This document shows, one piece after another, positions 11,911-38,643 of a stretch of DNA of 64,000 nucleotides. The DNA is taken from contig CAXXHB010000003.1 in the NCBI GenBank assembly GCA_963664815.2, forward strand, positions 2,528,001 to 2,592,000. The letters run 5' to 3'. Below the pieces are notes generated by a model. It had not been told where the DNA came from. It saw nothing but the letters and a program-made list of their open reading frames with translations, and did not search any database. Each line of letters starts with the position of its first letter. Within the stretch, counting starts at the first letter, position 1. The stretch comes from Spirochaetota bacterium (GTDB lineage Bacteria > Spirochaetota > UBA4802 > UBA5550). Made by a program: the position numbers and the translations under genes.

Positions 11911-11980
11911 GTCTGCCAGGTCAGAAAGCTCGCCCCCCTCTTTCCCCTCATAAGAACCGTACGTGAAAGTTTTACCACAG
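11911..11980 (-). ncRNA. group II intron 3' end remnant (DVI and half of DV)
   Basis: minus strand ...ttcacgtacggttctt...ctgacctggcagAC. Confidence 0.8.
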
Positions 11981-12128
11981 AACAACATAAACATTTTTAT
12001 TAATTTCATATCAACAGAAAAAGTCAATATCAATCTTGACATAGCAGGAAGTATAGGGCAATAGTTTCATATTCATAATAAAACGTGTGATGAAGAGTCA
12101 TTCATTAATAAATATTCCGGAGGAGAAT

Positions 12129-12707
12129 ATGCATTTTAAAATAAAATCAGCAAGTCTAATAGCGGCCCTAATCTTGATCTTTGGAGCAGTTGCTTTCTTT
12201 GCAAATGAAAGCACCGCGCAGGGAAAGACATACAAGATAGGAGATAAAGGCCCAGCCGGAGGTCGGGTATTTTATGACAAAGGTAATTCTGATGACGGCT
12301 GGAGATATTTGGAAGCAGCACCAGTTGATCAGAGCGTTAAATCAGAATGGGGTTGTTATGAAAAATCAATACCCGGAGCACAAGGTACAGCCATAGGGAC
12401 TGGTAAAAGCAACACGGAGGCTATAGTTAAAAGTTGTGGAGAAGCAAAAATAGCAGCTGAATTATGCACTGCATACAGAGGCGGCGGAAAAAGTGACTGG
12501 TTTTTGCCATCTAAAGATGAGCTTAACCGAATGTATATGAATTTGTATAAAAACGGTGTTGGCGGTTTCGTTGGTACCCTCTATTGGAGTTCGTCTGAGA
12601 ACGATGCTGGCAGCGCCTGGGGGCAGAATTTCTACAGTGGCGCCCAGGGCGACGGCAATAAGGACAACACCTTCAGAGTTCGGGCTGTCCGGGCTTTTAT
12701 CAATTGA
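12129..12707 (+). CDS. secreted DUF1566/CLec-fold protein, putative DGR target (copy 1)
   Basis: ggag RBS before ATG 12129; DWFLPSKDEL, YWSSSE..AW...F, RVRAVRAF. Confidence 0.85.
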   Translation: MHFKIKSASLIAALILIFGAVAFFANESTAQGKTYKIGDKGPAGGRVFYDKGNSDDGWRYLEAAPVDQSVKSEWGCYEKSIPGAQGTAIGTGKSNTEAIVKSCGEAKIAAELCTAYRGGGKSDWFLPSKDELNRMYMNLYKNGVGGFVGTLYWSSSENDAGSAWGQNFYSGAQGDGNKDNTFRVRAVRAFIN

Positions 12708-12851
12708 AATATTTAACTATTTTTACTTTCCCGCTGTAGCGGGTTCAAAAATTTTTAATGGTATCCTATGGCGCTTACTAAACTCAAGGATGAATTGCAA
12801 TAAGGTACGAGCTTAAAATATCAGCAGGAAATATCCGAATACATTGAAGAT

Positions 12852-13188
12852 AAGTATACCCGGAGTTTTTGAGACGTTGCATAAAATCGCCATTTACGGT
12901 CTATCCGCTGACTGGACAAATAATGATTTTACTGGATTATTTTTTTCCGGTAAAATCACCGGATTTTTACTGTATGTTATTTCAAAGACCGGAAGAAAAC
13001 GGTATTCAAATTCCTATGACTGTGCTGAGTATAATCAAAGTATGTTCTGCCCGATATCAATGGTTTTGTCCAACAAAAGTCTTAACATAGCTGCTGTCTG
13101 AAATTTAAAATTATCTGCTTAATATTTTTATACCGCTGATAAAGACCAGCGGTTTTTTTGGGCAGCTACGTTAAGACTTCTATAAGTT
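12852..13188 (+). repeat. repeat B plus repeat A (inverted attC-like hairpin, 13068-13188)
   Basis: gtccAAC-aaaagtcttaacatagctgc...gcagctacgttaagactt-ctataa-GTT. Confidence 0.9.
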
Positions 13189-13445
13189 ATGTGAAGGCGT
13201 TGTATTTTTTGTAGATTTCAACATATTTATCTATCTCGTTGAGTGAAAAAAAGTGAATTTTTTACTTGACTATAGATATGTTTATTACGATTATATTTGT
13301 AAATGGAGTTTATGTTTTGAGAGGTAGTTTTATGATAAAAATATTTACAGAAATAGAAGATATTTAACTGGCAAACGTCGTGTAAGCATGACGTTGAAAT
13401 TGCTATTTTGAAGCTTGAATAGGACAATTTGTAAAAAATTCATTT

Positions 13446-13472
13446 AAAAAAAGACCCAAAGGGTCTTTTTTT
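13446..13472. terminator. intrinsic terminator-like hairpin
   Basis: aaaaaagaccc-aaa-gggtcttttttt at the stop of 13471-14202. Confidence 0.65.
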
Positions 13473-14202
13473 ATACTCCCATTTTTGGCTTAAACTCACT
13501 TTTTTCAGTAAATCTTCTTGCTAATGCTTGGAACCAATCTCCAAAATGCACTGATTTATGCTTATTTCTCCTGTGATTTATGTATATTTCATATATTTTC
13601 CAATTTTTTATAATAAGGCTTCCTATCAAATCAACAACTAAATTTTCATCGTACACATGAGAATAAACACCTCTAGAAATTATTTCATAAACATTAATTA
13701 TATGAAGTAATGCTTCTCTGATTTTTTTTCCATCTTCTGTCATTTGAAAAAAAGATTGATCTTTTTCAAGTTTATAACCACCTTTTTCGTCAATATCACA
13801 AATCCACGAATGCAATATTTCTTCAGTTAGAGGCTTTCTTTCTTCAATTAATTCATCAAGAGTGATAATTTTATTTTTATAATATTCTTTCTGGATATCT
13901 CTGATTTCTTTTCTGTATGTTTGTATTTCTTTGACTAATTTGGGCAATTCAGTCATAGTTGTTTCTCTTCTCTTGAGCCATACATTTTTTTTTGCTTGAT
14001 AGACACCTAAAAGTAATGTAGATACAACTGCAAGGGCGGTAAAAGTTTTAACAACAGGTTCGTTAAATTTTTGGAATTTATATATTGTATAAACATTATA
14101 CAATACAATGGAAAGACCTATACAAATTACCAATATGATTATGAAGTAAACAACACGATCGATGAATTGTTCAATTTCACTTTTTCTTATACTTTTCAAC
14201 AT
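13471..14202 (-). CDS. membrane protein, DUF4760-like
   Basis: two N-terminal TM segments; IINVYEIISRGV...YDENLV...I..RR C-terminus. Confidence 0.65.
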   Translation of the reverse strand: MLKSIRKSEIEQFIDRVVYFIIILVICIGLSIVLYNVYTIYKFQKFNEPVVKTFTALAVVSTLLLGVYQAKKNVWLKRRETTMTELPKLVKEIQTYRKEIRDIQKEYYKNKIITLDELIEERKPLTEEILHSWICDIDEKGGYKLEKDQSFFQMTEDGKKIREALLHIINVYEIISRGVYSHVYDENLVVDLIGSLIIKNWKIYEIYINHRRNKHKSVHFGDWFQALARRFTEKSEFKPKMGV

Positions 14203-14463
14203 TATTTTCTCTCATTTTTGTAATAGTATGTTGTTATCATTGTAAGGCATAAATAATATATCAAGCATCTTATTTTAAATAAAGTGAAATGTCCACATGA
14301 GATAATTGGACAATTTTTTTATGTAAAACGTTTAGTCCAGCCTCCTTCCTGACCAAAAGAATGGGAACGGGATATTCTCCCTGAAACCCGAATAGACGAG
14401 TGGACCATTCATTTAACCCGTCAAGTTGGTCTTGAGTATCAAAAATATCATAAGGGGGATTGA

Positions 14464-15549
14464 TTGTCAATGTTTTATGGGATAGATCTTCACACAGATA
14501 GTTTTAAAGCAGCAGTTTTAGGAGAAAACACGGACGAACTGACAATGGAAACAGTCAGTTTAAAAACAGAAGCATTTAGGAGATTTTTAAGTAAACTGAT
14601 GATTGAGGATTATATAGTCGTTGAGGCATCAACCAATACATTCTGGTTTGTGGAACAGGTTAAAGAATATGTAAAGGAAGTCTATGTTGTAGATCCTTAC
14701 AAGTTTTCAATAATATCGAATTCCAGGAAGAAGACTGATAAGATTGATGCCATTAAACTGGCAAAGAAATTGAAATATTATGTATGCTACGATAAATCAT
14801 CGGATGAATTTCCGATAATCTACGTTCCATCAAAGGAAGTTAGCGAGTTGAGAAGCATGTTTGTAACGTATGAAATGCTCAAGAAACAGGCATGTATGAC
14901 AAAGAACCGTATCAGGTCACTTTTCCGTCAGAATGGTATTTTCGGATTTTCTAAGGAAAATCTTTCATACAACCACATACAGGACAGGATCAGGAGTCTG
15001 CCTGTCAGTGAGGCATTTTTAGTTCAAATCAATATTTTGCTATCAACGCTCAATTCTCTTGAAAATGAAAAAGAGAATATAAAGAAAGCAATTCTGAAGA
15101 AAGGGAAGATATTTTACAGAGAGATACGGATTCTGACAAGTATCCGCGGCATAAGCCCTTTTCTTGCTATCGCAATAATGTCAGATATTGCAGATATTAA
15201 CAGATTTCCCAGTGCTAAAAAACTATGCTCGTATTTAAGAACAGCTCCCCGAATAGATGCATCAGGGAACACAGCACATGTTGGTAAGGTGAATAAACAG
15301 TCAAGGACATTGACTGCCAGTTTAATGACAGAGAGTATAAAGCATTTCATTGATTCAAGTGACAGGCTTTATAAGTTTTATTTTGAAAAAAGGAAAGGTA
15401 AGAATGCCGGAAAGGTTCGTGTTGCAGTAATGCGCAAGATCATCGTTATCATTTATAATATGCTGAAAGAGAATAAAATGTATTACTATACTGATGAAAA
15501 AAACCATGTAGCAAAGATGAAACAATATGAGTCAGCATTAGCTGCATGA
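14464..15549 (+). mobile_element. IS110-family transposase
   Basis: YGIDLH, VVEAS and KTDKIDA (DEDD RuvC domain); LTSIRGI...DINRF..AKKLCSY..SG. Confidence 0.93.
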
Positions 15550-16189
15550 TTTTTTATAAATATTTTTAAAAAGTGTTGATTTTCATCATAGACGACGCCG
15601 CTCATGTCGACGCAGCTCAATACAGGCAGTGCATCGCCTGTTATATGCCGACAGGGGGTCACTGAGCCAGCCGAAGTGCAAACATCCTGTTTGCCCGACA
15701 GAACCGCCTGAGCAACAGCCCGACACAATATTAATGGATTTTAAATTACCGGATTTATAATTTCAAGAATAATTCGTATGTAGAAATTTGAATAAATAAA
15801 CAATTGATTCTTTATAACAACCAATATATCTGCTTTTAAATTACTGTTAAACGATACTTTCCGGAATAAATTATCAGTATTTCTTAATCATCAGAATAAA
15901 AGTATCCATTCATGATCTTCCTACATCCACCACAATCATAATACATCAATATGCAGATAATAATCTACAACCACTCTGCTTCGCCGGAGGTGAACGATAC
16001 CTCACCGGTTCAAGAATCTCTTTCACTACAAGCCTTCCGGTTTTGCATGCAGGGCAGCATGAAAGGTTTTTACCTGTGACGCGCAGATAGATTTAACTCC
16101 ATGTCTGCGGTATACTTTCATTCTTCTTTTGAATTTCGTAAAACTCGCGGCATGCCGCAACAGCCTTCTTTTTTTTCCGGTGAGAGAGA

Positions 16190-16397
16190 ATTCCGAAGTA
16201 CCAACAGGGCAAACAATCTTGCCCTTTGCCGGATGTTTCTTGGTCAGCCTCTGGCGGAGCAGGATGAGCGGAGCAAAGAGCTTCTTGAGGATACAGCTTT
16301 CCTGGTCTGGAAATATTTCAGGATTGATATAACTCTCTGCAGGGAGTGTGGAAAAGGACACATTCATTATATCCATGGCTTGTCGACTTACGGTTAG
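16190..16397 (+). pseudogene. C-terminal fragment of an IS91-like (Y2) transposase
   Basis: NRANNLALCRMFLG...IDITLCRECGKG zinc-ribbon-like tail directly upstream of repeat B. Confidence 0.55.
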
Positions 16398-16448
16398 CTG
16401 TTATAAAGAAGTATATCCGCACAGATTTAAAAACTGTTTTATAGAGAG

Positions 16449-16793
16449 GATAAGTATGCCCGGAGCTTTTAAGATTTTGCATAAAATCGCCATTTACGGT
16501 CTCTCCGCTGACTGGAGAAATAATTATTTTACGGGATTATTATTTTTTCCGGTAAGATCACCGGATTATTACTGTATATTATTTCAAAGACCGGAAGAAA
16601 ACGGTATTCAAATTCCTGTTATGAGTATTCTGAGTATAATCGAAGCATATTCTGCCCGATTCCAGTGGTTTCGTCCAACAAAAGTTTTAACATGGCTGCT
16701 GTCTGAAGATTGAAATTATCTATCTAATATTTTTATACCACTGATAAAGACCCGCGGTTCTTTTGGGCAGCTACGTTTAGACTTCTATAAGTT
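16449..16793 (+). repeat. repeat B plus repeat A (16673-16793)
   Basis: same repeat as 12852-13188; ends in GTTATGTGC. Confidence 0.9.
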
Positions 16794-17282
16794 ATGTGCA
16801 GTACTACCGCGTTTTTTAAAAAATCTGGGAATAAATCTTCCTGTATCCTTACAATATTTTTCATACTCGTTAGGGAAAATAGTTTTTAAATCTTTTTCTT
16901 CTTTTATAATTAGCAAATGCCAAATAGGGTGTAGAATCAATGCCCAAATAATAAATATCCAATTATTTAATAAAAATGCCAAACCAAAATTAAAAAAAGT
17001 TAAAAATGCTGCATACAAAGGATGCCGAAAATATCTCAACGCTCCTGTAGTTATTAATGCCTTACCTCGTAATTTTGGATTTAATGAAACAAGACTCCAA
17101 GTAATTATTATAATGCTAACAATAGTTAATAACACAAAAATAGACACAGGAACAAAATCTTGATTATTAAACACTTGAGGAATATTTAACAAATTTTTTA
17201 AATAAAATGAGATTATTAATAATGCTAAACTTATTAATAATCCAATAGGCCCCGACCCAAATATTCTATTGAAATTATTCAT
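16785..17282 (-). CDS. isoprenylcysteine/phospholipid methyltransferase family membrane protein (cassette)
   Basis: LITTGALRYFRHPLY, EEKDL..IF..EY..Y..TGRFIP; reads through the R'' box. Confidence 0.85.
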   Translation of the reverse strand: MNNFNRIFGSGPIGLLISLALLIISFYLKNLLNIPQVFNNQDFVPVSIFVLLTIVSIIIITWSLVSLNPKLRGKALITTGALRYFRHPLYAAFLTFFNFGLAFLLNNWIFIIWALILHPIWHLLIIKEEKDLKTIFPNEYEKYCKDTGRFIPRFFKKRGSTAHNL

Positions 17283-17317
17283 ATAATTCTCCTTTTCAAA
17301 TATTGCTTGCGGTAGTA

Positions 17318-18080
17318 GTCTGCCAGGTCAGGGAACCCGTACCCCCTTTTCCCAATAAGAACCGTATGTGAAAGTTTCACCACAGGCACTTCCTCCGGAC
17401 GCCCTTTATGCGGCTCAAGCCGTCTAAAGCTGATTATACAATCAGCCGCTGTTATCTGATTTTATTCTCATTTTTCTATAGCAGAAATAATCAGAATCTT
17501 CTTTTAAAAATGGGCTCCTGTCAAGACATATCATTCTGTGCCGTACAATTTTAATGTGTCCCGCAGTAAAGAGAATCTCCTCATCAGAACATAAAGTTTG
17601 AGTCTCTTTTCCTATGCGTTTTACAGTACCGGTTTTTAAGCCATAAAGAATTTTTCATCGTATGTCTGGAACTGCCCCATCTCCATAGAGCCTGAAAAAG
17701 AACAGTATTGGAATTTTTAAAAGGATTCCTTTTAAAACCATTCCCCGGAGCTTTTGAGACGTTGAATAAAATCGCCATTCACGGTCTATCCGCTGACTGG
17801 AGAAATAATTATTTTATGTGATTTTTATTTTTTCCGGTAAAATCACCGGATTTTTACTGTATATTATTTCAAAGACCGGAAGAAAACGGTATTCAAAATC
17901 CTATTTATACTTGTGCTTAGTATTATCGAAGCATGTTCTGCCCGATGTCAGTGGTTTCGTCCAACAGAAGTCTTAACATAGATGCTGCTTGAATTTTAAA
18001 ATTATCTGCTTAATATTTTTATACCGCTAATAAAGATTAGCGGTTTTTTTGAGGCAGCTACGTTAAGACTTCTATAAGTT
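17318..18080. mobile_element. composite repeat: group II intron 3' remnant, linker, repeat B, repeat A
   Basis: intron DV/DVI and RT C-terminus (LFQALWRWG..H..K) on the minus strand; same junction as 20558-21470 and 37932-38643. Confidence 0.85.
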
Positions 18081-18432
18081 ATATGATTTTTTTGGTCCCT
18101 TCATTACACGAAAATCCTCTATTTTTTATTCTTTTTTCTTTTTTATCTTTAACAAATTCAAGTTTATAATGTAACACTGAAAGTATCGGTGTCAGAGTAT
18201 TTAAGCTGATGTTAGTACTTTTTCCTGATCTTAGATTTTGAATCATTGTTGGAGAAACACCTGATTCTTCTGCTAGTTTTCTGACAGAAATTTTATTTTC
18301 TTCCATAGCTTCAATAAGAAATTCAGAAATAAGAAATTTTTCATATCCTTTTTCAAAATCAGCTTTCCATTCCGGGTCTTGCATGAGTTTATCAAATGTA
18401 CTTAATTGTTCGGGGGCTTTATTCTTCTTCAT
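18079..18432 (-). CDS. XRE HTH antitoxin
   Basis: ISVRKLAEESGVSPTMIQNLRSG; stop codon inside the R'' box. Confidence 0.85.
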   Translation of the reverse strand: MKKNKAPEQLSTFDKLMQDPEWKADFEKGYEKFLISEFLIEAMEENKISVRKLAEESGVSPTMIQNLRSGKSTNISLNTLTPILSVLHYKLEFVKDKKEKRIKNRGFSCNEGTKKII

Positions 18433-18811
18433 AATATTTTCCTTCTTTAACTCTTCTTATATAACTTTCTTTATAATTTAATGCTTTAATCTTTTCGTTT
18501 TCAGGTAATTTATCTGATTTTTTCCGAAATGCGTTTGTTACTATGATTGTTTTACCTGTAACGAAGAATGATAAAAATCTTTCCGGTTGAGGTTTAAATG
18601 CGTAAATTTTATCTCCTTCATATCGGAATTTCGTAATGTCATTGATTTTTCCATTATCACCCATTCTCTTGAGAAGGTAGAAAACTTTCTTTTGCATTTC
18701 TGTATCAAGTTCTAATAAATAGTCATAAGCTTGACTATTTCCGGATTCATCATAATACCATTCGATGGTATAAATTTTGCCTTTGTATGCGATGTAGTCT
18801 TTTTTACTCAT
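18419..18811 (-). CDS. RelE/ParE (Gp49-like) toxin
   Basis: KIYAFKPQPERFLSFF...IIVTNAFRKKSDKLP; overlaps the antitoxin gene. Confidence 0.85.
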   Translation of the reverse strand: MSKKDYIAYKGKIYTIEWYYDESGNSQAYDYLLELDTEMQKKVFYLLKRMGDNGKINDITKFRYEGDKIYAFKPQPERFLSFFVTGKTIIVTNAFRKKSDKLPENEKIKALNYKESYIRRVKEGKYYEEE

Positions 18812-18816
18812 AATCT

Positions 18817-18845
18817 AGTGTATCAATATATTTGCACAATGTCAA
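18817..18845 (-). promoter_or_regulatory. sigma70 promoter, probably giving a leaderless TA mRNA
   Basis: TTGACA-17-TACACT ends 5 nt before ATG 18811. Confidence 0.7.
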
Positions 18846-18896
18846 TAGTTTTTTTAGTTTTATTTCAGTGAAAAGTTTATAAAAATACGTCAAGCA

Positions 18897-19134
18897 GAGT
18901 ATCTGCCTGTTATATGCCGGTAAAGGCAGGTGCGCCGATATTGCAATTTTTAAAGTGTTTTGATATACCGGAAAAGTCAATCCTGTTATCGACCAGGGCT
19001 CTCCAGCGGTTTCATCCAACAAAAGTCTTAACATAGCTGCCATCTGAAGATTAAAATTATCTGCTTAATATTTTATACATCTGATAAAGAATGACGGTTC
19101 TTTTGGGGTAGCTACGTTTAGACTCCTATAAGTG
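18897..19134 (+). repeat. variant repeat B plus repeat A (19014-19134)
   Basis: divergent upstream segment ending gcggtttcatccaac, then the typical hairpin; core is GTG instead of GTT. Confidence 0.8.
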
Positions 19135-19154
19135 GGGCGCAGTATATTGAAATA

Positions 19155-19364
19155 TTAATCTATAAGTTTTATAGATATTATTTTAATATCACAAATATCA
19201 TTACCTTTCTCATATGCGGCATCAAATTGTATTTCTTTAATGGTTGTAACGATAGGGTCTATGTTAAATTCTTTTATTGGAATAGTAATTGTATAGGTGT
19301 TATCAGATGGTTTTTTAATAGAATATTGGTCAGATTCATTCAAATAACTCCAAATATTAATTAA
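19155..19364 (-). pseudogene. 3' fragment of a cassette gene truncated by IS701
   Basis: short AT-rich ORF abutting the IS701 end at 19365. Confidence 0.55.
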
Positions 19365-20189
19365 CTCGAGTTAGGCGTTTTTTGGACATAGCTACACCAC
19401 GAGTTTTAGTTTTTTATAAATGTCCCTCTTGGAGACACCCTTTTTATACATTATAATCACTTGATCAACGGACTCCCGCTTCTTCATTATTTTGAAATAC
19501 TGTCGAGATTTCCCAAGACTCTGTTCATTGTTAGCAACTCTCAATGATTCAAGTTTATATCCGTACTAAGGATGAACATGCTATATCCGGTTTTGTTTTA
19601 AATACTTCTCCGGATTCAGTTTCCACTTTCTCATTTAGATAAAACCGGAAATCATATGGAAAAGATATATCCCCTGATCTATAATGACTTGTCACCAAGC
19701 TGTGACCATATACCGTTCTGCCTTTTGAATGAGAATAATGCCACCCGAGACTTTCTATCTTCTTCGGTTTTCCCGGCTTCTCTATCACAGTATCATCTAT
19801 TATTAAAAAGCCTGTCCCGTTTTTCTTAGCGATACATTTTAAAAAATTCCTGTTAACTCTTAAAAGATCTTTACAGGTCCAAGCTGTATCTCTTATAAAC
19901 TTTATATCATTACTAACATCTCTTGTGTCAACCTGAATGGAGTTGATACTTGAGATTGTATGACGACCATCATATTCTATTATCCCTTTCAGCATCTTAG
20001 TAAAATGCCTCATTTGCGGTTTTGAAAAAATTTCTTTCGCCGCTGTAAAGTACTTGTCTTCTGTAATCTGTTGTTTATTTTTTTATCCATGTTAAGTCGT
20101 TTTTAAAATACTATTCATAATGGGGCTTAAAATTAATACAATTTTTTGCCCCATTATCTTTTTTCTTTTAAAAAAACGCCTAACTCAAG
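19365..20189 (-). mobile_element. IS701-family non-autonomous derivative
   Basis: inverted repeats ctcgagttaggcgtttttt / aaaaaacgcctaactcaag; two internal deletions. Confidence 0.9.
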
Positions 20190-20501
20190 TAATTTTATAA
20201 GAGTAGAAGTTTCTATTGTAACAATCAAATCGATATAACTTCTTTTATACTTTTCTAAATCCAGTGGATAAATAACTTCAAAATCTCCTATTTTTTTATA
20301 TTGAGAATAATTGTTTTTCTGGACATTAACTACTGAATCGATTTTAGTTCTTTTTTCTTTATCGCTAATTATTAAATTTTTTACAATACAACCTTTAATT
20401 GACAACACATCATCTTTATAGTTCTTGCAATTTTGCGAAGAGCAATTACCTGAAACAACAATAGATAATAGAATTATTGAGATTATAATTTTTTTCTTCA
20501 T
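20190..20501 (-). pseudogene. truncated duplicate of cassette gene 11342-11854
   Basis: near-identical to 11543-11854, cut by IS701. Confidence 0.9.
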
Positions 20502-20557
20502 AAGCTCCTTACATTAACCAGCCATGCTATGTATAACTATTGTAAATTTTCTTACTA

Positions 20558-21470
20558 GTCTGCCAGGTCAGGAAGCTCGCGCCTCCTTTCTCCCATAAAA
20601 ACCGTACGTGAAAGTTTTACCACAGGCACTTTCTCCGGTCGCCCTTCATACAGCTCAAGCCGTCTAAAGCTGATTATACAACCAACCGCTGTTAGCTGTT
20701 TTTATTCCCGTTTTTCTATAGTAGAAATAATCAGAATCTTCTTTTAAAAATGGGTTCCTGTCAAGACTTATCATTCTGTGCTGCACAATTTTAATGTGTC
20801 CCGCAGTAATGAGAATCTACTCATCAGAACAGAAAGTTTAAGCCCCTGTTACCTATGCGTTTTAAAGTACCGGTTTTTAAGCCATAAAGAATTTTTCATC
20901 GGGTGTCTGGAACTGCCCCATCTCCATAGAGCCTGAAAAAGAACAGTGTTGTGATTTTTAAAGAATTCCTTTTAAAACCATTCCCCGGGAGCTTTTAAGA
21001 CGTTGAATGAAATTGCCATTCACAGTCTATCCGATGATTGCATAAGTACTTCATTTATAATTATTATCAGATAATCTAATAATTGTCTGGACCCTGATTT
21101 ACCTGATTACAGGATGGTCAGGATTCACCTGCCAGTTCCGGAGACTAAATCATGATAATCTTTTAATCCTTTAATCCCGATTCAGATAGCTGTAGTATCA
21201 GGTTTTTACAAGATTTTTTGTTTTTCCGGTAAAATCACCGGATTCTTACTGCATGTTACTTCAAAGACCGTGAGAAAACTGTATTCAAATTCCTGTTATG
21301 ACTATTCTGAGTATAATCGAAGCATGTTCTGCCCCGATATCAGCGGTTTCGTCCAACAAAAGTCTTAACATAGATGCTTCCTGAATTTTAAAATTATCTG
21401 CTTAATATTTTATACATCTGATAAAGAATGACGGTTCTTTTGGGCAGCTACGTTAAGACTTCTATAAGTT
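20558..21470. mobile_element. composite repeat (intron remnant, B, A) with a REP-like insertion
   Basis: as 17318-18080, with an extra palindromic segment at about 21085-21186. Confidence 0.85.
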
Positions 21471-21485
21471 GTACGTCGTTTGATT

Positions 21486-27906: not shown

Positions 27907-28033
27907 GGCTTATTCTCTAATTTAATATACAATGTAATTTAACTTTTTCAATAGATATGCACGTTAATTCTTTGGAAATAATTTTGATTCAGTATAGTTT
28001 TTATTATTAGCAGAATAAAAGTTAAGCACGTCG

Positions 28034-28371
28034 ATCTGCCAGGTCAGGAAGATCGCGCCTCCTTCCCCCCATAAATACCGTACGTGAAAGTTTTACCACA
28101 GGCACTTCCTTCGGTCGCCCTTTTTACGGCTCAAGCCGTCTAAAGCTGATTATACAACCAACCGCTGTTAGCATTTTTATTCCCGTTTTTTATATCAGAA
28201 ATAATCAGAATATTCTTTTAAAATGGGTTCTGCCCGATTCCAGTGGTTTCGTCCAACAAAAGTCTTAACATAGATGCTTCCTGAATTTTAAAATTATCTG
28301 CTTAATATTTTATACATCTGATAAAGATTAGCGGTTTTTTTGAGGCAACTACGTTAAGACTTCTATAAGTT
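28034..28371. mobile_element. shortened composite (intron 3' end fused to the end of repeat B, plus repeat A)
   Basis: deletion at the gttc microhomology near 28228. Confidence 0.85.
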
Positions 28372-28617
28372 ATATGAAGGCGGCGCGCTATACAGCAACC
28401 AGTCGCAGCAATACAAGGAAGTATTGCTGCGTTTATAAGAAACCGATTTTACCACAGAACAACATAAACATTTTTATTAATTTCATATCAACAGAAAAAG
28501 TCAATATCAATCTTGACATAGCAGGAAGTATAGAGCAATAGTTTCATATTCATAATAAAACGTGTGATGAAGAGTCATTCATTCATTCATTCATTAATAA
28601 ATATTCCGGAGGAGAAT

Positions 28618-29205
28618 ATGCATTTTAAAATAAAATCAGCAAGTTTAATTGCGGCTTTAATCATGATCTTTGGAGCAGCAGCTTTCTTTGCAAATGAAAG
28701 CAACGCGCAGGGAAAGACATACAAGATAGGGGACAAAGGCCCTGCCGGAGGCTGGGTATTTTATGACAAAGGTAATTCTGATGACGGATGGAGATATTTG
28801 GAAGCAGCACCAGTTGATCAGACTACAAAAGATGGTGCAGAATGGAGTTGCTATAAAAAATCAATACCCGGCGCACGAGGTACAGCCATAGGGACAGGTA
28901 AAAGTAATACAGAGGCTATAGTTAAAAGCTGTGGAGAAGCAAAGATAGCAGCTAAACTATGTACTGCATACAGAGGCGGCGGAAAAAGTGACTGGTTTTT
29001 GCCATCGAAAGATGAGCTTAATCTGATGTATGCAATTTTGTGTGTAAAAGGTGTTGGCAGTTTCGCTGATAACCATTATTGGAGTTCGTCGCAGAACCTT
29101 GCTGGCCTCGCGTGGTACCAGAGTTTCGGCAATGTCCTCAAGAAGGGCACCATCAGGGAGGACAACGTGCTTAGGGTTCGGGCTGTCCGGGCTTTTAACA
29201 ATTGA
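28618..29205 (+). CDS. secreted DUF1566/CLec-fold protein, putative DGR target (copy 2)
   Basis: paralogue of 12129-12707 with a strongly divergent C-terminal segment. Confidence 0.85.
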   Translation: MHFKIKSASLIAALIMIFGAAAFFANESNAQGKTYKIGDKGPAGGWVFYDKGNSDDGWRYLEAAPVDQTTKDGAEWSCYKKSIPGARGTAIGTGKSNTEAIVKSCGEAKIAAKLCTAYRGGGKSDWFLPSKDELNLMYAILCVKGVGSFADNHYWSSSQNLAGLAWYQSFGNVLKKGTIREDNVLRVRAVRAFNN

Positions 29206-29345
29206 ACTATTTAACTATTTTTCTTTTCCCGCGATAGCGGATTCAAATTTTTTTTAATGGTATCCTATGGCGCTTACTGAATTCAAGGATGAATTGCAAT
29301 AAGGTACGAGCTTAAAATATCAGCAGGAAATATCCGAATACATTG

Positions 29346-29663: not shown

Positions 29664-29728
29664 ATATGAAGCGGCCTCTAATAAAAATATATCCGACTTG
29701 AGGCATGGACTCCGAAAGACGGCAATAA

Positions 29729-30271
29729 TTATTGTTCATAAAAAGCCGAACCACTTACAACTAATTCACATAATTTTTCTTTTATTATTTTTATTAAACA
29801 ATCCGTAGTTCTAAAGTTTAGTATCTCATTACGAGTAATAACAATTAATCTAATTCCTTCTTGAAGCGCACTTGAAATTATACTTTGAGATTGTGTAAGA
29901 TCATATTGATTTCCAGTAATCCCATTTGCAGCGATGAAAATTCCAATATCTTGAGCTCTATGTTTTACTTTTTCCTTAAACCATGAAACATCGATGCTGC
30001 CGACAGGAGATGACCAATTCTTACATTCAACCAATATTATATATGGTAAAAAAACTAAGCCACCATTGTTTTTTTCATTCCAAAACGCTACATCAATTTC
30101 TTCAGTATTATGAATGTTCATTTGGTTTCGTCTTGTTACTGAAATTCCAGGTATTTTTTCGAATAAATAGCATATTAAATCTTCTAAAGCTTTACCCTTA
30201 TGTGCGGATACTTGAGCAAGATCGCTTTGATTAAAATAATCTAAAATTTTTCTGGAGGAATAATTAGCCAT
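29729..30271 (-). CDS. Mrr-like PD-(D/E)xK restriction endonuclease
   Basis: KGKALE, EIDV, ILVECKNWSSPV, GIFIAANGIT. Confidence 0.8.
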   Translation of the reverse strand: MANYSSRKILDYFNQSDLAQVSAHKGKALEDLICYLFEKIPGISVTRRNQMNIHNTEEIDVAFWNEKNNGGLVFLPYIILVECKNWSSPVGSIDVSWFKEKVKHRAQDIGIFIAANGITGNQYDLTQSQSIISSALQEGIRLIVITRNEILNFRTTDCLIKIIKEKLCELVVSGSAFYEQ

Positions 30272-31163: not shown

Positions 31164-31228
31164 AATAATTCCTATAAATATTTTCTTTACTAACCGGGCA
31201 CGGATGCCCGGATATATTTTTTAGGCCG

Positions 31229-31360
31229 GTCTGGTAGGTCAGGGAGCTCGCGCCTCCTTTCTACCATAAGAACCGTACGAGAAAGTTTTACCACAGGCAC
31301 TTCCTCCGGTCGCCCTTCTTACGACTCAAGTCGTCTAAAGATGATTATACAACCAGCTGC
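31229..31360 (-). ncRNA. group II intron 3' end remnant (DV-DVI)
   Basis: ...gtacggttctt...cctgacctaccagAC. Confidence 0.8.
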
Positions 31361-31423
31361 CAATTAAAGTAATATCCCTACCTAATATTTTGATGCAAGA
31401 ATGTAGACAAATACTCATGAATT

Positions 31424-33169
31424 CTAACGGTTTAAATAAAGACTTGATAATTCGCTAACTAAAGAGTCAGATGAGTACGCAGGACTAGTCACAGGGATTC
31501 TGATAATTCTGGTTGAATGTTTACTACTTTTTTTATAATGAATTTCAATTTCTTTTCTTTTTCTTTTATCTGTTTTTGCAATTCTTACAATTTTATCTTT
31601 ACTAATTACCTTTTTTCTACCATATAAAAATCGAATAGTTAAATTATCTTCATAAAATGTATATTTATATACACCTAGTTCAAAGAAAAATAAATAAAAC
31701 GGTAATACTACTAAAACTCCAAATGATAGTATCATAGAAAATAAATTATAATGACTAGAATTACCTACGAGAAAACCATAAACAATTATAACTATTCCCA
31801 TGATTACTTTTATACTATCATCCCAGACTATCATACTGTGAGGCAATGTTAAGCAGTTAGTATAGTGAGCCCAAAAAATGAGACACAGATTTCAATATGA
31901 TGAAGTGTATTTTTCCTTGAAATAAAACACAAGGAGAATTATAAAAGGTAATGAAAAAACGACATAGTAAAGAGTTCAAAGCAAAAGTAGCCATTGATGC
32001 CCTCCGTGGAGAAAAGACAGTACAGGAGTTGGCACAGAAGTATGAGATACACCCGAATCAGGTGACACTCTGGAAGAAGCAGTTAATTGAGAACGCAACT
32101 ACCGCATTTGATAAACATGGTAATGACAAAGAATTAGATGATACTGAAAAGAAACAAGACGAACTTTACAGCCAGATAGGTCAGCTCAAAGTTGAGAATG
32201 ATTTTTTAAAAAAAAAGTACAAGCAACTGTACGGGACAGAGCCGAAGTAGTAGAGCCCGGACATATGAAACTATCAATTAAAGAACAATGTGCAATTCTC
32301 GGCATAAGCCGTTCATCGTATTACTATAAGCCAGAATTGGCATTGAATGAAACCAATGTTGCAATATTGAAAGCTATCATGGAAGAATTAAAGCTTCATC
32401 CGTTTTACGGATATAGGAAGATTACTATAGCCCTTAAGGACATGAGTGTCACAAGAAAGCAGATTAGGTTAATCATGAAAAAGGCCGGACTGCGGGCTAT
32501 TTATCCCGGCAAACGCTTGTCAATACCAGTAAAGATGCATGAGAAATATCCATATCTCCTTCAAGATAAGAATATATGGCTTCCGAATCAGGTATGGGCG
32601 ACAGACATTACGTACATTAAGCTTTCAGGAGGTCATGTATATCTAATTGCTATTCTTGATTTATTCAGCCGGAAGGTGCTTTCATGGAAACTGTCAAATA
32701 CGCTGGATGCAGAATTTTGCGTATCGGCTCTTGAAGAAGCAATAATGACATATGGAACACCGGCGATTTTCAATACAGATCAGGGGAGCCAGTTTACATC
32801 TGAGGCATTTACAGAAAAACTTAAGAGCCATGGGATAAGGATCAGTATGGATGGCAAAGGACGAGCTCTGGATAACATTTATATTGAACGGCTCTGGAGG
32901 TCTCTCAAGTATGAAGAAATATATCTGAATGAATATCGCACCATGGAGAATTTAAAAGCAGCATTGAAAAGATATTTTGATTTTTATAATACTGAAAGAT
33001 TTCACCAGTCACTGGAGTATGCCACACCGGATAAAATATATTATTCGTCATTTAAAGAACAATGTCAGGAAGAAGCAGCTTGAAGGCCTGGAGAGATACA
33101 CCAAAACATTTTAAAATCATGTATTGACAAAAGGGCTCACCTTATAGTATTAAATTTTACATTTTCCAT
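31424..33169 (-). pseudogene. membrane cassette gene interrupted by IS3
   Basis: MENVKFNT (33169) joins NCLTLPHSMIVW after removing the IS. Confidence 0.75.
31861..33144 (+). mobile_element. IS3-family element (orfA 31951-32250, orfB 32265-33083)
   Basis: tatagtgagccc / gggctcacctta inverted repeats, TAG duplication, WATDITY, NTDQGSQFT, DNIYIERLW. Confidence 0.95.
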
Positions 33170-33317
33170 TATCAACCTTCGCTCTATTTTAATTTTAGTA
33201 TATTAAAAAATTTCATATTACTTTTGTAACTCTGACTCAGGTGATACAACATCTATTATCTTTAAAAATTCTAATCTTTTCCCGGCATGGAAGCCGGGTG
33301 TAAATTTTATGCGTCTA

Positions 33318-33700
33318 ATCTGTCAGGTCAGGGAGCCCGTACCCCCTTTTCCCATAAGAACCGTACGTGAAAGTTTTACCACAGGCACTTCCTCCGGTCG
33401 CCCTTCTTACGGCTCAAGCCGTCTAAAGATGATTATACAACCAGCCGCTGTTAGCTGTTTTTATTCCCGTTTTTCTATATCAGAAATAATCAGAATCTTC
33501 TTTAAAAATGGGTTTCTGTCAAGACTTATCATTCTGTGCCGTACAATTTTAATGTGTCCCGCAGTAAAGAGAATCTCCTCATCAGAGCTGAAATTTTAAG
33601 TCCCTGTTTCCTATGTGTTTTAAAGTACCTGTTTTTAAGCTATAAAGAATTTTTCATCGGGTGTCTGAATCTGCCCCATCTCCATAGAGCCTGAAAAGAA
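33318..33700 (-). mobile_element. group II intron 3' remnant with decayed RT/maturase C-terminus
   Basis: DV/DVI plus frameshifted LWRWG..HP.K; ends in AT. Confidence 0.82.
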
Positions 33701-33875
33701 CATAGGGGATGGTGTTTAACTGAAATTTTAACTGTAAGTATGCAGCCGGTTCAGCTCTGCTGATTGGCGCGGCTCTTGCTCTTTACCGCAAGGGGCGTGA
33801 CAAAGGCGGAGCATTGAATTATTTTTTATTATCAAAACACTCTGATTTAAATGAGAAAATTATAAGAAGATTTAT

Positions 33876-34142
33876 CTAACTATCCATATCTTCCTCCTGA
33901 GTTCCGAAAAGAAGAACTATTCTTTCATCACATGATGTCAGTATCGGTTTAAATCCATCTGCCAGCGAAATGGCTTTCATGCGTGCATCTCTTATAATAT
34001 AATCAAAAGCCATAATTTCATCATTATGGATTGTATTTAAATCCCTTAATCCATTTAATGCAAATGATAGTACACAAAATGCCGACATTATATCATTCAG
34101 TTTTTTTTCAACATCATCGGTTTTAAATGCATGTATCTCCAT
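33876..34142 (-). CDS. hypothetical protein divergent from the XRE gene
   Basis: 88-aa ORF sharing a 67-bp intergenic region with 34210. Confidence 0.5.
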   Translation of the reverse strand: MEIHAFKTDDVEKKLNDIMSAFCVLSFALNGLRDLNTIHNDEIMAFDYIIRDARMKAISLADGFKPILTSCDERIVLLFGTQEEDMDS

Positions 34143-34209
34143 TATTATAACCCCGTTATAAATATTATCCTAATTTGGGATATTCTAAAACAGGATTTAT
34201 TATATACAA

Positions 34210-34431
34210 GTGAAAAATTCAATTTATACAAAAGAATATCAGGCTTTTTTACAGGTACTCAAGCAGGCCCGTATTGAAGCGGGGCTGACCCAGTCGGATG
34301 TTGCAAAGAAATTAAAACAGCACCAGTCATACGTTTCCAAATGCGAATCAGGAGAACGGCGTGTTGATGTTGTTGAACTTAAAAAATTTGCCTCTTTATA
34401 CGGGAAAAAGATCAGTGATTTTGTTGAATAA
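34210..34431 (+). CDS. XRE-family HTH regulator
   Basis: ARIEAGLTQSDVAKKL...SYVSKCESGERRVDVVEL. Confidence 0.88.
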   Translation: MKNSIYTKEYQAFLQVLKQARIEAGLTQSDVAKKLKQHQSYVSKCESGERRVDVVELKKFASLYGKKISDFVE

Positions 34432-34594
34432 ATGTCCTGAACAAAGCCTGAATATTGTGTAAGTTAAATAAAATTAAAGAAACCATAAAATAGAACTCTA
34501 CAAGTAAAGCTCTTTAAGCTTTGTTTATTGCATAGACCTTGCTCGTTTCCGCAAGGGGTGTGACAAAGGTGGAACTGTGAAAAAAATTGAAGAA

Positions 34595-35353
34595 TTACTT
34601 CAACAAAAATTCAAGAATCTTCTTACCACCTTCAGTATTTCTTGAAAGATGAGCACCCCGAGTTTCTGAACCGGAATAAACAACAATATTTTTATGTTTC
34701 GGTAGATTCCACATTGAAGCTTTTCGTGTTAATATAATACATGCTTCACCATTACGAACCTTTGGTACAAGATAGTCATTAACCCATTCAAGCATTATTT
34801 GAGATGTATAAAGTTGATTTAATTTTTTGTCAGATAATTTAAAAGATTTTGAATGATAAGGAACCAATTCTAATGCGGCAATATTCTTGGAAACAAAACT
34901 CAATGATTCAGCATAAGAAGGAAGATTTTTCTTTATTTTTACTTCGTCAATAATATCGTTCAATTTGCTTACCCAATATTTACCATGCCAGATAAACTTT
35001 GGATTTAATTTGAAAAAAGGATATGGATCATTTTCTAACTCTTGTTTTATGTTTTTAATCATATATTCTTTGAACAATTTATCATTTGATTCAGCATAGT
35101 AATCTAATATATTAAATCCCGGATTTAAAAGCAGTATAAATACTTTGGCATTTTTTAAATCACCGATATAGGGGACTGGTAACAGACCGAAATGAAATTT
35201 ATGATCTTTTGAACCAAAATCAGAACTATTTATAAATTCATCATAATTTGTATAATTAAAGAAATCTTCACTTCTTAATACATCGTCTTTTTGATGAAGA
35301 TAAGGTTTTCTGTTAAGATTAAAATTCTTCCAGCAACTCAGTAAATCTTCCAT
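34595..35353 (-). CDS. hypothetical protein, uracil-DNA-glycosylase-superfamily-like
   Basis: PVPYIGD..AKVFILLLNPG, LELVPYHS; the track start at 35410 lies inside the IS, so the likely ATG is 35353. Confidence 0.6.
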   Translation of the reverse strand: MEDLLSCWKNFNLNRKPYLHQKDDVLRSEDFFNYTNYDEFINSSDFGSKDHKFHFGLLPVPYIGDLKNAKVFILLLNPGFNILDYYAESNDKLFKEYMIKNIKQELENDPYPFFKLNPKFIWHGKYWVSKLNDIIDEVKIKKNLPSYAESLSFVSKNIAALELVPYHSKSFKLSDKKLNQLYTSQIMLEWVNDYLVPKVRNGEACIILTRKASMWNLPKHKNIVVYSGSETRGAHLSRNTEGGKKILEFLLK

Positions 35354-35385
35354 ACATTGCTCACTAAAATGAATTAAACTAATAA

Positions 35386-36697
35386 CTCGAGTTAGGCGTT
35401 TTTTGGACATAGCTACGCCATGAGTTTTAGTTTTTTATAAATGTCCCTCTTGGAGACACCCTTTTTATGCATTATAATCACTTGATCAACGTACTCCCGC
35501 TTCTTCATTATTTTGAAATACTGTCGAGATTTCCCAAGACTCTGTTCATTGTTAGCAACTCTCAATGATTCAAGTAAAGCATACGCAGCAAATACAAGAG
35601 CACAGTATTTTTCTATTGCCTTCAGTTTCCTCATCTGGTATTGACTCATACCAAGACGATCTTTACAATAAAGATATCCAACTTCAATATCCCAGCGAAA
35701 GCTGTAATATTTCAAGATGCCTTCATTATTCAAGTTCATATCCGTACTAAGGATGAACATTATAGATCCGTCCTTGACTCTCTTTGATATCAGTATAATT
35801 GCATTACCGATACCTTTCAGCCAGACTTCTATCCGTCTGACTTTGAAGGCTTCATCCTTTAATTTTACTTTCTCAAAGGATGAGTTTCTTAAGTTTTTCA
35901 CATAAGCTGACAGCTTATGTTTTTTACCATGCTCTTTAAACTGGAATACTCTATTGCTCTTAAGCGCTCCTATAAGTTCAAATTCCCGGTCTTTTACAGC
36001 TTTTACGACTTTCTCCGATGTGTACCAGCTATCTACTAAACAGTATATCTTATCTCCCGTAAAAGGTTCAAACTTATCTATCAATTCACATGCTATATCC
36101 GGTTTTGTTTTAAATACTTCTCCGGATTCAGTTGCCACTTTCTCATTTAGATAAAACCGGAAATCATATGGGAAAGATATATCCCCTGATCTATAATGAC
36201 TTGTCACCAAGCTGTGACCATATACCGTTCTGCCTTTTGAATGAGAATAATGCCACCCGAGACTTTCTATCTTCTTCGGTTTTCCCGGCTTCTCTATCAC
36301 AGTATCATCTATTATTAAAAAGCCTGTCCCGTTTTTCTTAGCGATACATTTTAAAAAATTCCTGTTAACTCTTAAAAGATCTTTACAGGTCCAAGCTGTA
36401 TCTCTTATAAACTTTATATCATTACTAACATCTCTTGTGTCAACCTGAATGGAGTTGATACTTGAGATTGTATGACGACCATCATATTCTATTATCCCTT
36501 TCAGCATCTTAGTAAAATGCCTCATTTGCGGTTTTGAAAAAATTTCTTTCGCCGCTGTAAAATACTTGTCTTCTGTAATCTGTTGTTTATTTTTTTATTC
36601 ATTAGAGTTTTTAAAATACTATTCATAATGGGGTAAAAAATTAATACTATTTTTTGCCCCATTATCTTTTTTCTTTTAAAAAAACGCCTAACTCAAG
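35386..36697 (-). mobile_element. IS701-family element, full length (transposase 35413-36525)
   Basis: 19-bp inverted repeats, TAA on both flanks, LIIDDT..K, LVDSWY, Y..RW.IE. Confidence 0.93.
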
Positions 36698-36871
36698 TAA
36701 TAATCTAAAAATTGTTTAAAGTATATCAATTAAAATAACTATAACACCTTTCAGATTTTTGAATAAATTGCAGATCAAAGTCAATAATTTATTCAAAAGC
36801 AATATTTTATATTTAACGTGCCTGCTGAGATATAAGCTGGCATGTTTTATTAAATATATCTGCAGCAGAAA

Positions 36872-37145
36872 AAATTATTTTACAGAATTATTATTTTCCC
36901 CGGTAAAATCACCGGATTTTTACTGTATGTTGTTTCAAAGAACGGAAGAAAACGGTATTCAAATTCCTGTTATGACTATTCTGAGTATAATCGAAGCATA
37001 TTCTGCCCGATTCCAGTGGTTTCGTACAACAAAAGTCTTAACATAGCCGCTGTCTGAAGATTAAAATTATCTGCTTAATATTTTTATACCGCTAATAAAG
37101 ACCAGCGGTTTTTTTGGGGCAGCTACGTTAAGACATCTATAAGTT
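36872..37145 (+). repeat. repeat B (partial) plus repeat A (37024-37145)
   Basis: same repeat family; ends in GTTATGTGC. Confidence 0.9.
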
Positions 37146-37197
37146 ATGTGCAGTTCAACACGCTAACTAAAAAATATTTATTCAAACATTGAATGAA

Positions 37198-37866
37198 TTA
37201 ATTTTGAAATAATAATCTATTCTGAATTAATCTACCAAGTTCTGAACTCAACTTTTCAAAGTTTCTATCAAAATCTGATTTTGCAACATTATTTATAACT
37301 TCGTTATTACTAGTAATAATGAACCGATAAACAGTAAGAGTACTTTTTAAGAATTCTGAGATTTCATTGATTTTTAGATCTAAATTTTCAGGCAAGAAAA
37401 TTCTGTTATTATCATATGTATTAATAAAATCAAAACACGATTGTTGTAACACAAACATTCCGTTTGTTCTTGTAATATTTATATATTCTTGCATTTTATT
37501 TTCTGATTGAATAATCATATTTTTTTCAAACAAGCTAAAAGGAGTTTTTGCTAAAATATCACTAAGTTCTTCATCAGTAAGTGTGTCCATGTCTAATGCA
37601 AGGAAATAATTATTAGTATAGAATTGAAGATTTCTTTTATGAATTTGTAGCTTACTCCAGATAATGGGTAGAACTTCGAATTCGCGTTGATTTATTTTAG
37701 AAATACGATCAAATTCAAGGTTTATTTTTTGTTTATATTTCTCAATACTTTTGTTGAATTGCGATTCAATAAATTTATTTCCAAAATATTTAGATAATCC
37801 TATGAATAAAAGTATGGCCGAACCAACCGAAGTAGATGTTGTAATAAAAAATGTCTTTATATCCAT
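37198..37866 (-). CDS. hypothetical cassette protein with N-terminal TM segment
   Basis: 222 aa, ggag RBS, bounded by the cassette inverted repeat ttcaacacgct / agcgtgttgaa. Confidence 0.7.
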   Translation of the reverse strand: MDIKTFFITTSTSVGSAILLFIGLSKYFGNKFIESQFNKSIEKYKQKINLEFDRISKINQREFEVLPIIWSKLQIHKRNLQFYTNNYFLALDMDTLTDEELSDILAKTPFSLFEKNMIIQSENKMQEYINITRTNGMFVLQQSCFDFINTYDNNRIFLPENLDLKINEISEFLKSTLTVYRFIITSNNEVINNVAKSDFDRNFEKLSSELGRLIQNRLLFQN

Positions 37867-37931
37867 AGTTTCTCCTATTAAAAAGATTACTGTTTATATA
37901 AAACGTCGAACGAAAAGTCCAGCGTGTTGAA

Positions 37932-38643
37932 GTCTGGTAGGTCAGGAAGTTCACGCCCCCTTTCCCGTAAGAACCGTACGTGAATGTTCCCCTTCGTACG
38001 GCTCAAGCTGTCTTAAGCTTTCTATACAACCAGCTGCTGTTAGCTGTTTTTATTCCCGTTTTTCGATATCAGAAATAATCAGAATATTCTTTTAAAATGT
38101 GTTCCTGTCAAGACTTATCATTTTGTGCTTTACAATTTTAATGTGTCGCACAGTATTAAGAATCTCCTCATCAGAGCAGAAAGTTTAAGTCCCTGTTACC
38201 TATGTGTTTTAAAGTACCTGTTTTTAAGCTATAAAGAATTTTTCATCGGGTGTCTGAATCTGCCCCATCTCCATAGAGCCTGAAAAAGAACAGTATTGGA
38301 ATTTTTAAAAGGATTCCTTTTAAAACCATTCCCCGGAGCTTTTGAGACGTTGAATAAAATCGCCATTCACGGTCTATCCGTTGACTGGAGAAATAATTAT
38401 TTTATGTGATTTTTATTTTTTCCGGTAAAATCACCGGATTTTTACTGTATGTTATTTCAAAGACCGGTAGAAAACGGTATTCAAAATCCTATTCTATTTA
38501 TACTGTTCGATCCCCGTGGTTTCGTCCAACAGAGTCTTAACATAGTTGTTGTCTGAAGATTGAAATTATCTGTTTAATGTTTTTATACCGCTAATAAAGA
38601 TTAGCGGTTTTTTGAGGCAACTACGTTAAGACTTCTATAAGTT
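37932..38643. mobile_element. composite repeat (intron remnant with canonical DV, B, A)
   Basis: 34-nt DV at 37971-38004, GAGCCGTACGAAGGGGAACATTCACGTACGGTTC on the minus strand. Confidence 0.88.

Follow-up and report, generated by a model that had tools for sequence, protein, structure and literature searches.

Relics of a group II intron family in an integron-like cassette array of a Spirochaetota bacterium

The window analysed here, that is, the whole stretch of 64,000 nucleotides at C3:2528001-2592000, belongs to the genome of a Spirochaetota bacterium (GenBank assembly GCA_963664815.2; 5.2 Mb in three contigs). It contains an array of gene cassettes separated by long repeats, and at seven sites in this array only the decayed 3' end of a group II intron survives, all seven belonging to one intron family. 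The place of their junctions relative to the cassettes, together with the lineage of the intron, points to a family of IIB kind that probably homed into the left recombination sites of the cassettes.

The array and its seven intron relics

The repeat that lies between cassettes, here called module A, begins TTATAGAAGTCTTAAC GTAGCTGCC, continues about 70 nt on with the complementary GGCAGCTAT GTTAAGACT and then reads TGTTGGACGAAACC. The window contains nine copies; the whole genome has about 32, distributed over seven or eight arrays. Directly before each module A stands an 11-nt box, C.KCRYATAAC, which is itself preceded by cassette-specific sequence. Intact cassette starts, found elsewhere in the genome, are composed of a conserved 10-bp hairpin module, TTAAC, the box GTTATNYGMAA and a sequence exactly complementary to the cassette's own opposite end. 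The terminal inverted repeats of a cassette are about 20 nt long, the outer 11 being semi-conserved and the inner 8-11 cassette-specific, and both ends are intact in four distinct cassettes. Folded as single-stranded DNA, one complete inter-cassette unit forms a long hairpin in which the two boxes are paired (z = -3.45; none of 200 shuffles was as stable). The first ~135 nt of module A were also identified in 8 of 40 related genomes, belonging to several genera, and two of these have the same layout. Regarding gene content, the cassettes encode a HigB/HigA-like pair, an Mrr-type nuclease, an adenylate cyclase and many unknowns.

Recombination sites of the attC type are imperfect inverted repeats of about 60-140 nt with RYYYAAC and GTTRRRY boxes. 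The repeat units found here are 190-345 nt long, with boxes C.KCRYATAAC and GTTATNYGMAA and a cassette start that pairs with its own end. An integron integrase was not found in the genome: the best TIGR02249 matches score 220.7 and 164.6 against a cut-off of 265 and leave model positions 180-234, which we take to be the integron-specific domain, unmatched, and the NF011946 score is 159.7 against a cut-off of 435. One recombinase (P0008) passes the XerA-type model NF040815 (235 against 220). No recombinase gene was present among the ten flanking window ORFs (open reading frames) that were scanned, and a protein-cluster look-up of two recombinases returned no names. Because of the length of the repeats and the failure to find an integron integrase, the array is called integron-like and not an integron, and the name attC, which a preliminary description of this DNA had given to the repeats, is not kept for them. 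The 11-nt boxes with their 6-nt spacer may resemble Xer/dif-type sites.

A pattern search of the window located the motif CTGACCTRNCAGAY on the minus strand at 11911, 17318, 20558, 28034, 31229, 33318 and 37932 (relics 1 to 7, Table 1), which are the seven minus-strand intron 3' ends that the preliminary description had listed. With one mismatch allowed there are eight matches in total, a number reached by none of 100 shuffles, and the DNA upstream of the seven sites is one alignable repeat family. None of the seven relics is full-length. All lie on the minus strand, which is the strand of most cassette ORFs and the polarity of the repeats, so the cassette orientation claimed for the intron holds throughout. 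The long relics retain the last ~105 codons of the intron protein (...FQALWRWGRFRHPMKN...), followed by the 3' strand of domain IV, domain V and domain VI; the reverse transcriptase (RT) and GIIM domains are not retained. Stop codons break the protein frame in all four window copies of readable length. The tail LWRW..HP.K, previously noted as a feature of the intron at large, can be read in these four (relics 2, 3, 6 and 7), the remaining three being too short. At E<=10 the Rfam model of domains V-VI, RF00029, reports three of the seven copies, of which only 37932-38006 exceeds the gathering score (41.5 against 40); the other two matches start at 33322 and 20562. Domains I-IV and the 5' GUGYG end are absent from the copies in the window and in the genome, the D1-D4 families having no window match at E<=10 and RF02012 no match in the genome. 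The relics are not introns capable of splicing.

The surroundings of the individual relics differ. Relic 1 adjoins the upstream region of an opposite-strand Lcl_C lipoprotein gene, and relic 2 is fused on its upstream side to a long module A. The 3' flanks of relics 1 and 3 are one duplicated cassette (repeat family D14, 99%), and the 3' flank of relic 5, CGGCCT, pairs with the cassette end at 29672-29677.

Table 1. Coordinates of the intron relics, cassette ends, repeats and transposase pieces; positions are those of the window unless another locus is named
Feature	Position	Strand	Description
Relic 1	11911..11980	-	70 nt; 3' part of extended domain V, domain VI
Relic 2	17318..17732	-	~415 nt; broken RT tail from ~codon 393 of 500, extended domain V, domain VI
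Relic 3	20558..20972	-	~415 nt; built like relic 2; RF00029 33 bits
Relic 4	28034..28228	-	~195 nt; fused to position ~141 of module A
Relic 5	31229..31360	-	132 nt; domain V triad mutated to AGT
Relic 6	33318..33702	-	385 nt; RF00029 33 bits; 5' end joins unrelated DNA, no module A
Relic 7	37932..38320	-	389 nt; sole window copy with canonical 34-nt domain V; RF00029 41.5 bits
Extended domain V (relics 2 to 6)	17342-17400, 20582-20640, 28058-28116, 31253-31311, 33341-33400		
Right end, cassette after relic 2	16791..16810	-	cassette-specific repeat GCGGTAGTA and 11-nt box CTGCACATAAC
Left end, cassette after relic 2	17309..17317	-	TACTACCGC directly after the intron's last base; 11-nt box absent
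Right end, cassette after relic 7	37143..37164	-	AGCGTGTTGAA and CTGCACATAAC
Module A	17733..18077	-	~345 nt; inter-cassette repeat; starts TTATAGAAGTCTTAAC; first ~135 nt a long hairpin
Other module A copies (end positions)	13185, 16790, 19131, 21467, 28368, 29660, 37142, 38640		
IS91-family (Y2) transposase C-terminal piece	16227..16394	+	56 residues; antisense to cassettes, beside module A
Y2_Tnp fragment, locus L003	3005-3592	-	
Y2_Tnp fragment, locus L004	19191-19772	+	
Duplicated cassettes	7127-7800, 19362-20038, 35383-36550		
Duplicated cassettes	11540-11839 and 20187-20486		

Insertion point, lineage and other copies

The insertion point was analysed by asking whether the 3' flank of the intron is the complement of the sequence at a given distance (0-30) before the next module A, for the 15 ends with no more than 8 kb to that module. 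Six of the 15 ends gave a perfect inverted repeat, 6-11 nt long, every time at offset 11 and at none of the other offsets from 0 to 30, and mismatched controls gave one match in 206 pairs x 31 offsets. The window cases are relics 2 (9 nt), 5 (6 nt) and 7 (11 nt); in the last of these the partner of AGCGTGTTGAA is TTCAACACGCT at 37921-37931, directly after the intron end. Further cases at offset 11 are 1103537 and, by eye and with one mismatch, 1372808. The cassette-specific sequence begins directly at the intron's last base, with the conserved 11-nt box missing, and the 3' junction lies at a fixed 11-nt offset, between GTTATNYGMAA and the cassette-specific part of the repeat. The exact offset of 11 nt that had been proposed for the cassettes is therefore seen at relics 2, 5 and 7; it is weak at relics 1 and 3 (GTTGTACTTAG|tagtaa), where the far end at 11323-11339 predicts TGGCAA and TAGTAA is seen (4/6 by eye), and no inverted repeat was found for relics 4 and 6.

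Fourteen empty sites were identified genome-wide, each with the conserved hairpin, TTAAC, GTTATNYGMAA and then unique sequence, and with ~50 nt upstream conserved. None of the fourteen left-end hairpin modules lies within the window, and the three relic-preceded window cassettes with matchable ends have no 11-nt left box. The box of the empty sites ends in A in all 14 and in AA in 12. These sites correct the earlier expectation of a 5' exon ending in about AG, which had been read from the complement of the cassette far end, a sequence that differs there in intact cassettes. The same expectation placed the insertion at a fixed offset downstream of the hairpin; the 11-nt offset of the junction stands, but the hairpin is not needed as its reference, the ~50 nt upstream being conserved in sequence.

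Regarding lineage, the best-kept protein tail (P0001) is 72-85% identical to metagenome proteins of 476-500 residues, the 85% being to P0002 (500 aa). Full-length metagenome relatives have RVT_N, RVT_1 and GIIM domains and no nuclease domain (Pfam), and one of them passes the NCBI group II RT/maturase model TIGR04416 (347 bits). P0002 matches 6ME0_C, a group IIB protein, with 516 bits (E = 7e-154, residues 15-486 of 500), compared with 142 bits to LtrA and 107 bits to the GsI-IIC RT. The 6ME0_C protein has 562 residues, ~80 of them past the aligned part, which is where the relatives of the tail stop; its intron is of the T.el4h type of group IIB. The RNAs of more distant relatives match Rfam D1D4-7 (RF02012), and domain V starts GAGCC, which gives the triad AGC. 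The domain V triad of class C is CGC. PMC4424553 gives a CGC triad for some introns. On the protein scores, the D1D4-7 RNAs of the relatives and the AGC triad, and as judged from sequence, the lineage is IIB-like or chloroplast-like (CL) and not IIC, in agreement with the first assignment.

Domain V had been described as having an AGC triad and 34 nt, a description that fits relic 7, whose fold comprises a 34-nt domain V plus domain VI. In relics 2 to 6 domain V is 59 nt long and carries a 25-nt insertion, and relic 1 is without its 5' strand; among the six window copies that keep this strand, five have AGC and relic 5 has AGT. Genome-wide, the canonical 34-nt form is found in 3 of 19 copies, relic 7 included, and in 15 of 19 the same 25-nt insertion replaces the terminal loop, where it is predicted to extend the helix. 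No insertion is present in the domain V of five relatives, judged by the lengths of their Rfam matches. Either a master copy with the extended domain V was mobile, or the variant spread via conversion.

The genome has about 20 copies of the intron segment (BLAST) and at least 19 intron 3' ends by pattern search. Nine copies exceed the RF00029 gathering score. The 19 ends carry 18 different 3' flanks, each of which begins at the intron's last base. No long RT frame was found among the ORFs before every end in this genome, and of its three RVT_1 and two GIIM matches, all are parts of other elements apart from a weak GIIM piece at 3686628. A full-length copy elsewhere in the genome, which the preliminary description had suggested looking for, was thus not found by the RT-frame, GIIM, RVT_1 and RF02012 searches. 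Neither did sixty related genomes yield one (best protein identity 47%, in genome G051), nor 400 genomes sampled from the phylum, in which the same single match was obtained. The closest proteins were at most 56% identical in a collection of genome contigs and 53-59% identical in a collection of metagenome contigs; viral contigs gave no match, and all plasmid matches (tblastn) were below 60% identity. When public runs X1-X4 were searched with 33200-34000, they gave short contigs of repeat fragments whose loose ends match other copies in this genome, with no sign of a full-length intron. The relatives that were found (L008 and L011-L014) occupy other kinds of site and are consequently uninformative on the exon-binding sequences (EBS) of this intron.

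Two observations concern the 5' part of such introns. In one related intron on a metagenome contig (L012, 1-70), domains V-VI run directly into GTGCGAC, the 5' end of that intron, an arrangement that an intron circle, a tandem copy or a wrap-around in the assembly could each produce. That module A might be the 5' part of the present intron was considered and rejected, since no D1-D4 family matches it, 8 of the 40 relatives have its first ~135 nt with no intron, and its other neighbours include a transposase fragment and a lipoprotein gene.

Proposed homing history and the shared truncation

We give a probability of about 70% to the reading that a now dead intron family of IIB kind, with an endonuclease-less protein, used the left recombination site of the cassettes as its homing site, inserting on the cassette strand. 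According to this proposal the intron would have reverse-spliced into left cassette ends, with the junction between the 11-nt box and the cassette-specific repeat. The site would have been read by ordinary IIB pairing, of EBS2/EBS1 with AACGTTAT.YG.AA and of EBS3 with T at +1, and the replication fork would have supplied the primer for cDNA synthesis. Subsequent deletion and recombination between repeats may then have cost the intron its 5' two kilobases and the cassette its left site; this double loss would explain why relic-preceded cassettes are without a complete end pair. The argument for reverse splicing is that the junctions are precise before unrelated DNA, which homologous recombination cannot produce. 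IIB introns read positions -1 to -13 by EBS1/EBS2 and +1 by EBS3, and the stretch from -1 to -13 is here AACGTTATNYGMAA, the most conserved part of the cassette start. The intron is sense on the strand with leading-strand G>C skew in 19 of the 19 listed ends, with the terminus near 1.85 Mb, an orientation skew that fits the fork-primed insertion of endonuclease-less introns described in PMC4424553.

Several points weigh against this history. A clear inverted repeat is lacking in four of the seven window copies, and the last six 5'-exon bases deduced for the occupied cassettes vary, which is a poor fit to strict EBS1 pairing. Domain I is retained in no copy, so there is no EBS to set against the site. 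T at +1 occurs in 14 of 18 distinct occupied and in 5 of 13 distinct empty sites (Fisher p = 0.06); this preference is suggestive only and is not significant after duplicate removal. The replication orientation is confounded with the orientation of the cassette genes, and one further copy, near 1.10 Mb, is oriented against replication. An identical junction with module A is present in five copies and an identical junction with a transposase fragment in four, though the 3' flanks differ; since the upstream junctions are shared in spite of this, the copies have been shuffled by recombination, and the number of truly independent insertions is uncertain.

An unlikely alternative is that the site was found by structure, as in IIC introns, the intron being placed at a fixed distance from a DNA hairpin (the 10-bp module or the whole folded repeat) and not by sequence. 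The stable fold of the inter-cassette unit with its paired boxes would serve such targeting, as would the 10-bp hairpin just upstream of every empty site, and the bases deduced for intron-binding sequence 1 do differ between cassettes; the authors of PMC7923331 also speculate on a role of hairpins for IIB introns. However, the lineage is IIB/CL, and recognition of a homing site is attributed to all lineages but class C in PMC4424553. Moreover, the 5' exon is conserved in sequence over ~50 nt, so that sequence reading suffices, and the relatives L013 and L008 sit at unrelated sites where no such hairpin was seen.

A separate question is the common 5' end of the relics. Thirteen long copies start within ~40 nt of one another, near codon 393, in at least four upstream contexts: module A in five copies, an antisense Y2-transposase fragment in four and, in derived form, in two more, and other DNA in two. 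Going by the protein, the intact gene would read ATG GTT TCA AAA at this spot, where one junction type has lost 3 nt and another contains an insertion. Divergence among the copies is 3-20%, and their star-like tree is not ordered by junction type. Old age and recombination between repeats can account for shared junctions with different cassettes, but not for the common end point, for which a stop of cDNA synthesis or a recombinase pseudo-site are possibilities. That the uniform ~400-nt stubs are the product of a site-specific process, and not of random decay, is a doubtful idea that nevertheless has two candidates. One is abortive retrohoming that would halt at one place of the intron RNA and leave copies dead on arrival, by analogy with long interspersed nuclear elements (LINE). 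The other is the array's Xer-like recombinase, which may have deleted at a GTT-containing pseudo-site within the intron gene. If the stubs did arise in this way, every event would remove the left recombination site of a cassette, and intron invasion would freeze cassettes and turn a mobile array into a fixed one.

It is quite improbable that few insertions gave rise to the many copies, relics having been spread by duplication, unequal crossing-over and gene conversion, in which case they would say little on target choice. Duplication did occur, relics 1 and 3 being one duplicated unit (D14, 99%), and the shared module A and transposase junctions and the star-like, mosaic-looking copy tree are what such spread would leave. 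Against this, eighteen different sequences begin at the intron's last base, and homologous exchange would have no homology on the cassette side and can create neither the junctions nor one offset to each cassette's own inverted repeat. Very improbable indeed is retention of the ~400-nt stub for array function, as a promoter, terminator or structured RNA before cassettes: it would suit the common start of the thirteen long copies in at least four contexts, the extended domain V of 15 of 19 copies and the outward promoters that PMC3001079 reports for IIC-attC introns, but promoter-like matches in 16700-18200, around relic 2, number 8 against a shuffle mean of 5.8 and are not above it, the copies differ by 3-20% with reading frames broken in four of four readable window copies, and three window copies are much shorter.

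Transposase fragments accompany part of the stubs. In four genome copies, N-terminally truncated pieces of the IS91-family Y2_Tnp separate module A from the stub, in antisense orientation, and the only full-length Y2 transposase of the genome is 24% identical to them. An IS91-type rolling-circle element as carrier of the stubs was rejected and stays a side possibility: it leaves the precise 3' junctions before 18 flanks unexplained, and the full transposase is only 24% identical. A Y2 transposase gene (418 residues) and a XerA-like recombinase gene (287 residues) stand head to tail at C3:3695386-3697429, minus strand, in the orientation of the cassettes of an array whose first left-end site (3695088) follows ~300 nt downstream.

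Other features concern the arrays themselves. Two paralogous Lcl_C (DUF1566-type) lipoprotein genes, at 12087-12707 (+) and 28564-29205 (+), run opposite to most cassettes, and each is followed by module A; upstream, one has the 70-nt intron stub and the other only an 18-nt trace of it. Whole cassettes are duplicated in the array at 78-99% identity (families D6, D9, D10 and D14). A DDE transposase gene (DDE_Tnp_1_6, DUF772) at 43866-45392 (-) lies just past the last module. In a genome of the same genus (L040, G006:C1:2176001-2194000, 7600-9560), a conserved inter-cassette unit of ~430 nt sets a toxin-antitoxin cassette apart from its neighbours; this unit is much longer than any attC that we know of. 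At C3:1364274-1367572 (L003), a 3.3-kb cassette with intact ends contains an RVT_1-type RT that is not of group II, plus two large ORFs, and may be a defence-type module. Another group II intron, apparently intact, is located at C3:3194618-~3196470 (L004 4618-~6470, minus strand), where it occupies, in cassette orientation, the short spacer that separates two cassettes of another array; it encodes a 413-residue RVT_1 + GIIM protein, matches Rfam D1D4-2 (116.6 bits) and D5-D6 (51.6 bits), and ends 35 nt before the cassette start GTTGATATGATA.

Meaning and comparison with known systems

To our knowledge, until 2021 the only group II introns known in cassette arrays were of class C and inserted against the cassettes. 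In the window and its genome, an extinct family of IIB-type introns had probably specialised on left cassette ends. Its likely cost to the host array is the loss of left ends by cassettes: as no left-end hairpin module lies in the window and three cassettes have no 11-nt left box, relic-preceded genes are probably no longer movable as cassettes. The array itself, with long family-wide repeats, Xer-like recombinases and no integron integrase found, may merit its own study. One paper of 2021 (PMC7923331) then described one IIB intron that follows an attC and runs in cassette direction, with its targeting only speculated on. What is new here is the many insertion sites resolved to the base, the unoccupied sites and the non-canonical array; occupied and empty sites together make a defined homing site testable.

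The closest comparison is the intron of that paper (Sonbol & Siam 2021, PMC7923331), UHB.I2, which is a full-length IIB1/CL1 intron without endonuclease domain from a cassette array of a soda-lake metagenome, inserted in cassette orientation right after attC; its authors suggest that a top-strand hairpin may guide such introns. The relics resemble it in the IIB-type RNA with AGC triad, the endonuclease-less protein, the cassette orientation and the position just downstream of an attC-type repeat. They differ in number and state, UHB.I2 being one full-length copy at one site and the present family at least 19 truncated copies with no full one, and in resolution, for here the junction is base-exact (11 nt past GTT) and empty sites can be compared.

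The same paper describes H.ha.F1 and H.ha.F2 of Halorhodospira halochloris, IIB fragments truncated on the 5' side that have class E proteins and lie in an attC cluster without integrase. As in the relics, what is left is domains V-VI with part of the protein gene, the cluster has no neighbouring integrase, and hairpins lie upstream. The proteins are of class E as described, whereas the closest solved relative is here of IIB/CL type, and there are two copies compared with at least 19 that share a truncation point.

The IIC-attC introns, for instance S.ma.I2, insert in the bottom strand, opposite to cassette transcription, according to PMC3001079. They have in common with the present family that a group II lineage is specialised on the recombination sites of cassette arrays, with many targets per genome (PMC3001079, PMC4424553). 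In contrast, the relics lie on the cassette strand and carry AGC instead of CGC, and their protein family scores 107 bits to the IIC RT and 516 to the IIB protein, so that on strand, triad and protein they fall outside the IIC-attC family. Insertion of a IIB intron in cassette orientation after attC, published in 2021 (PMC7923331), is a rare but reported habit.

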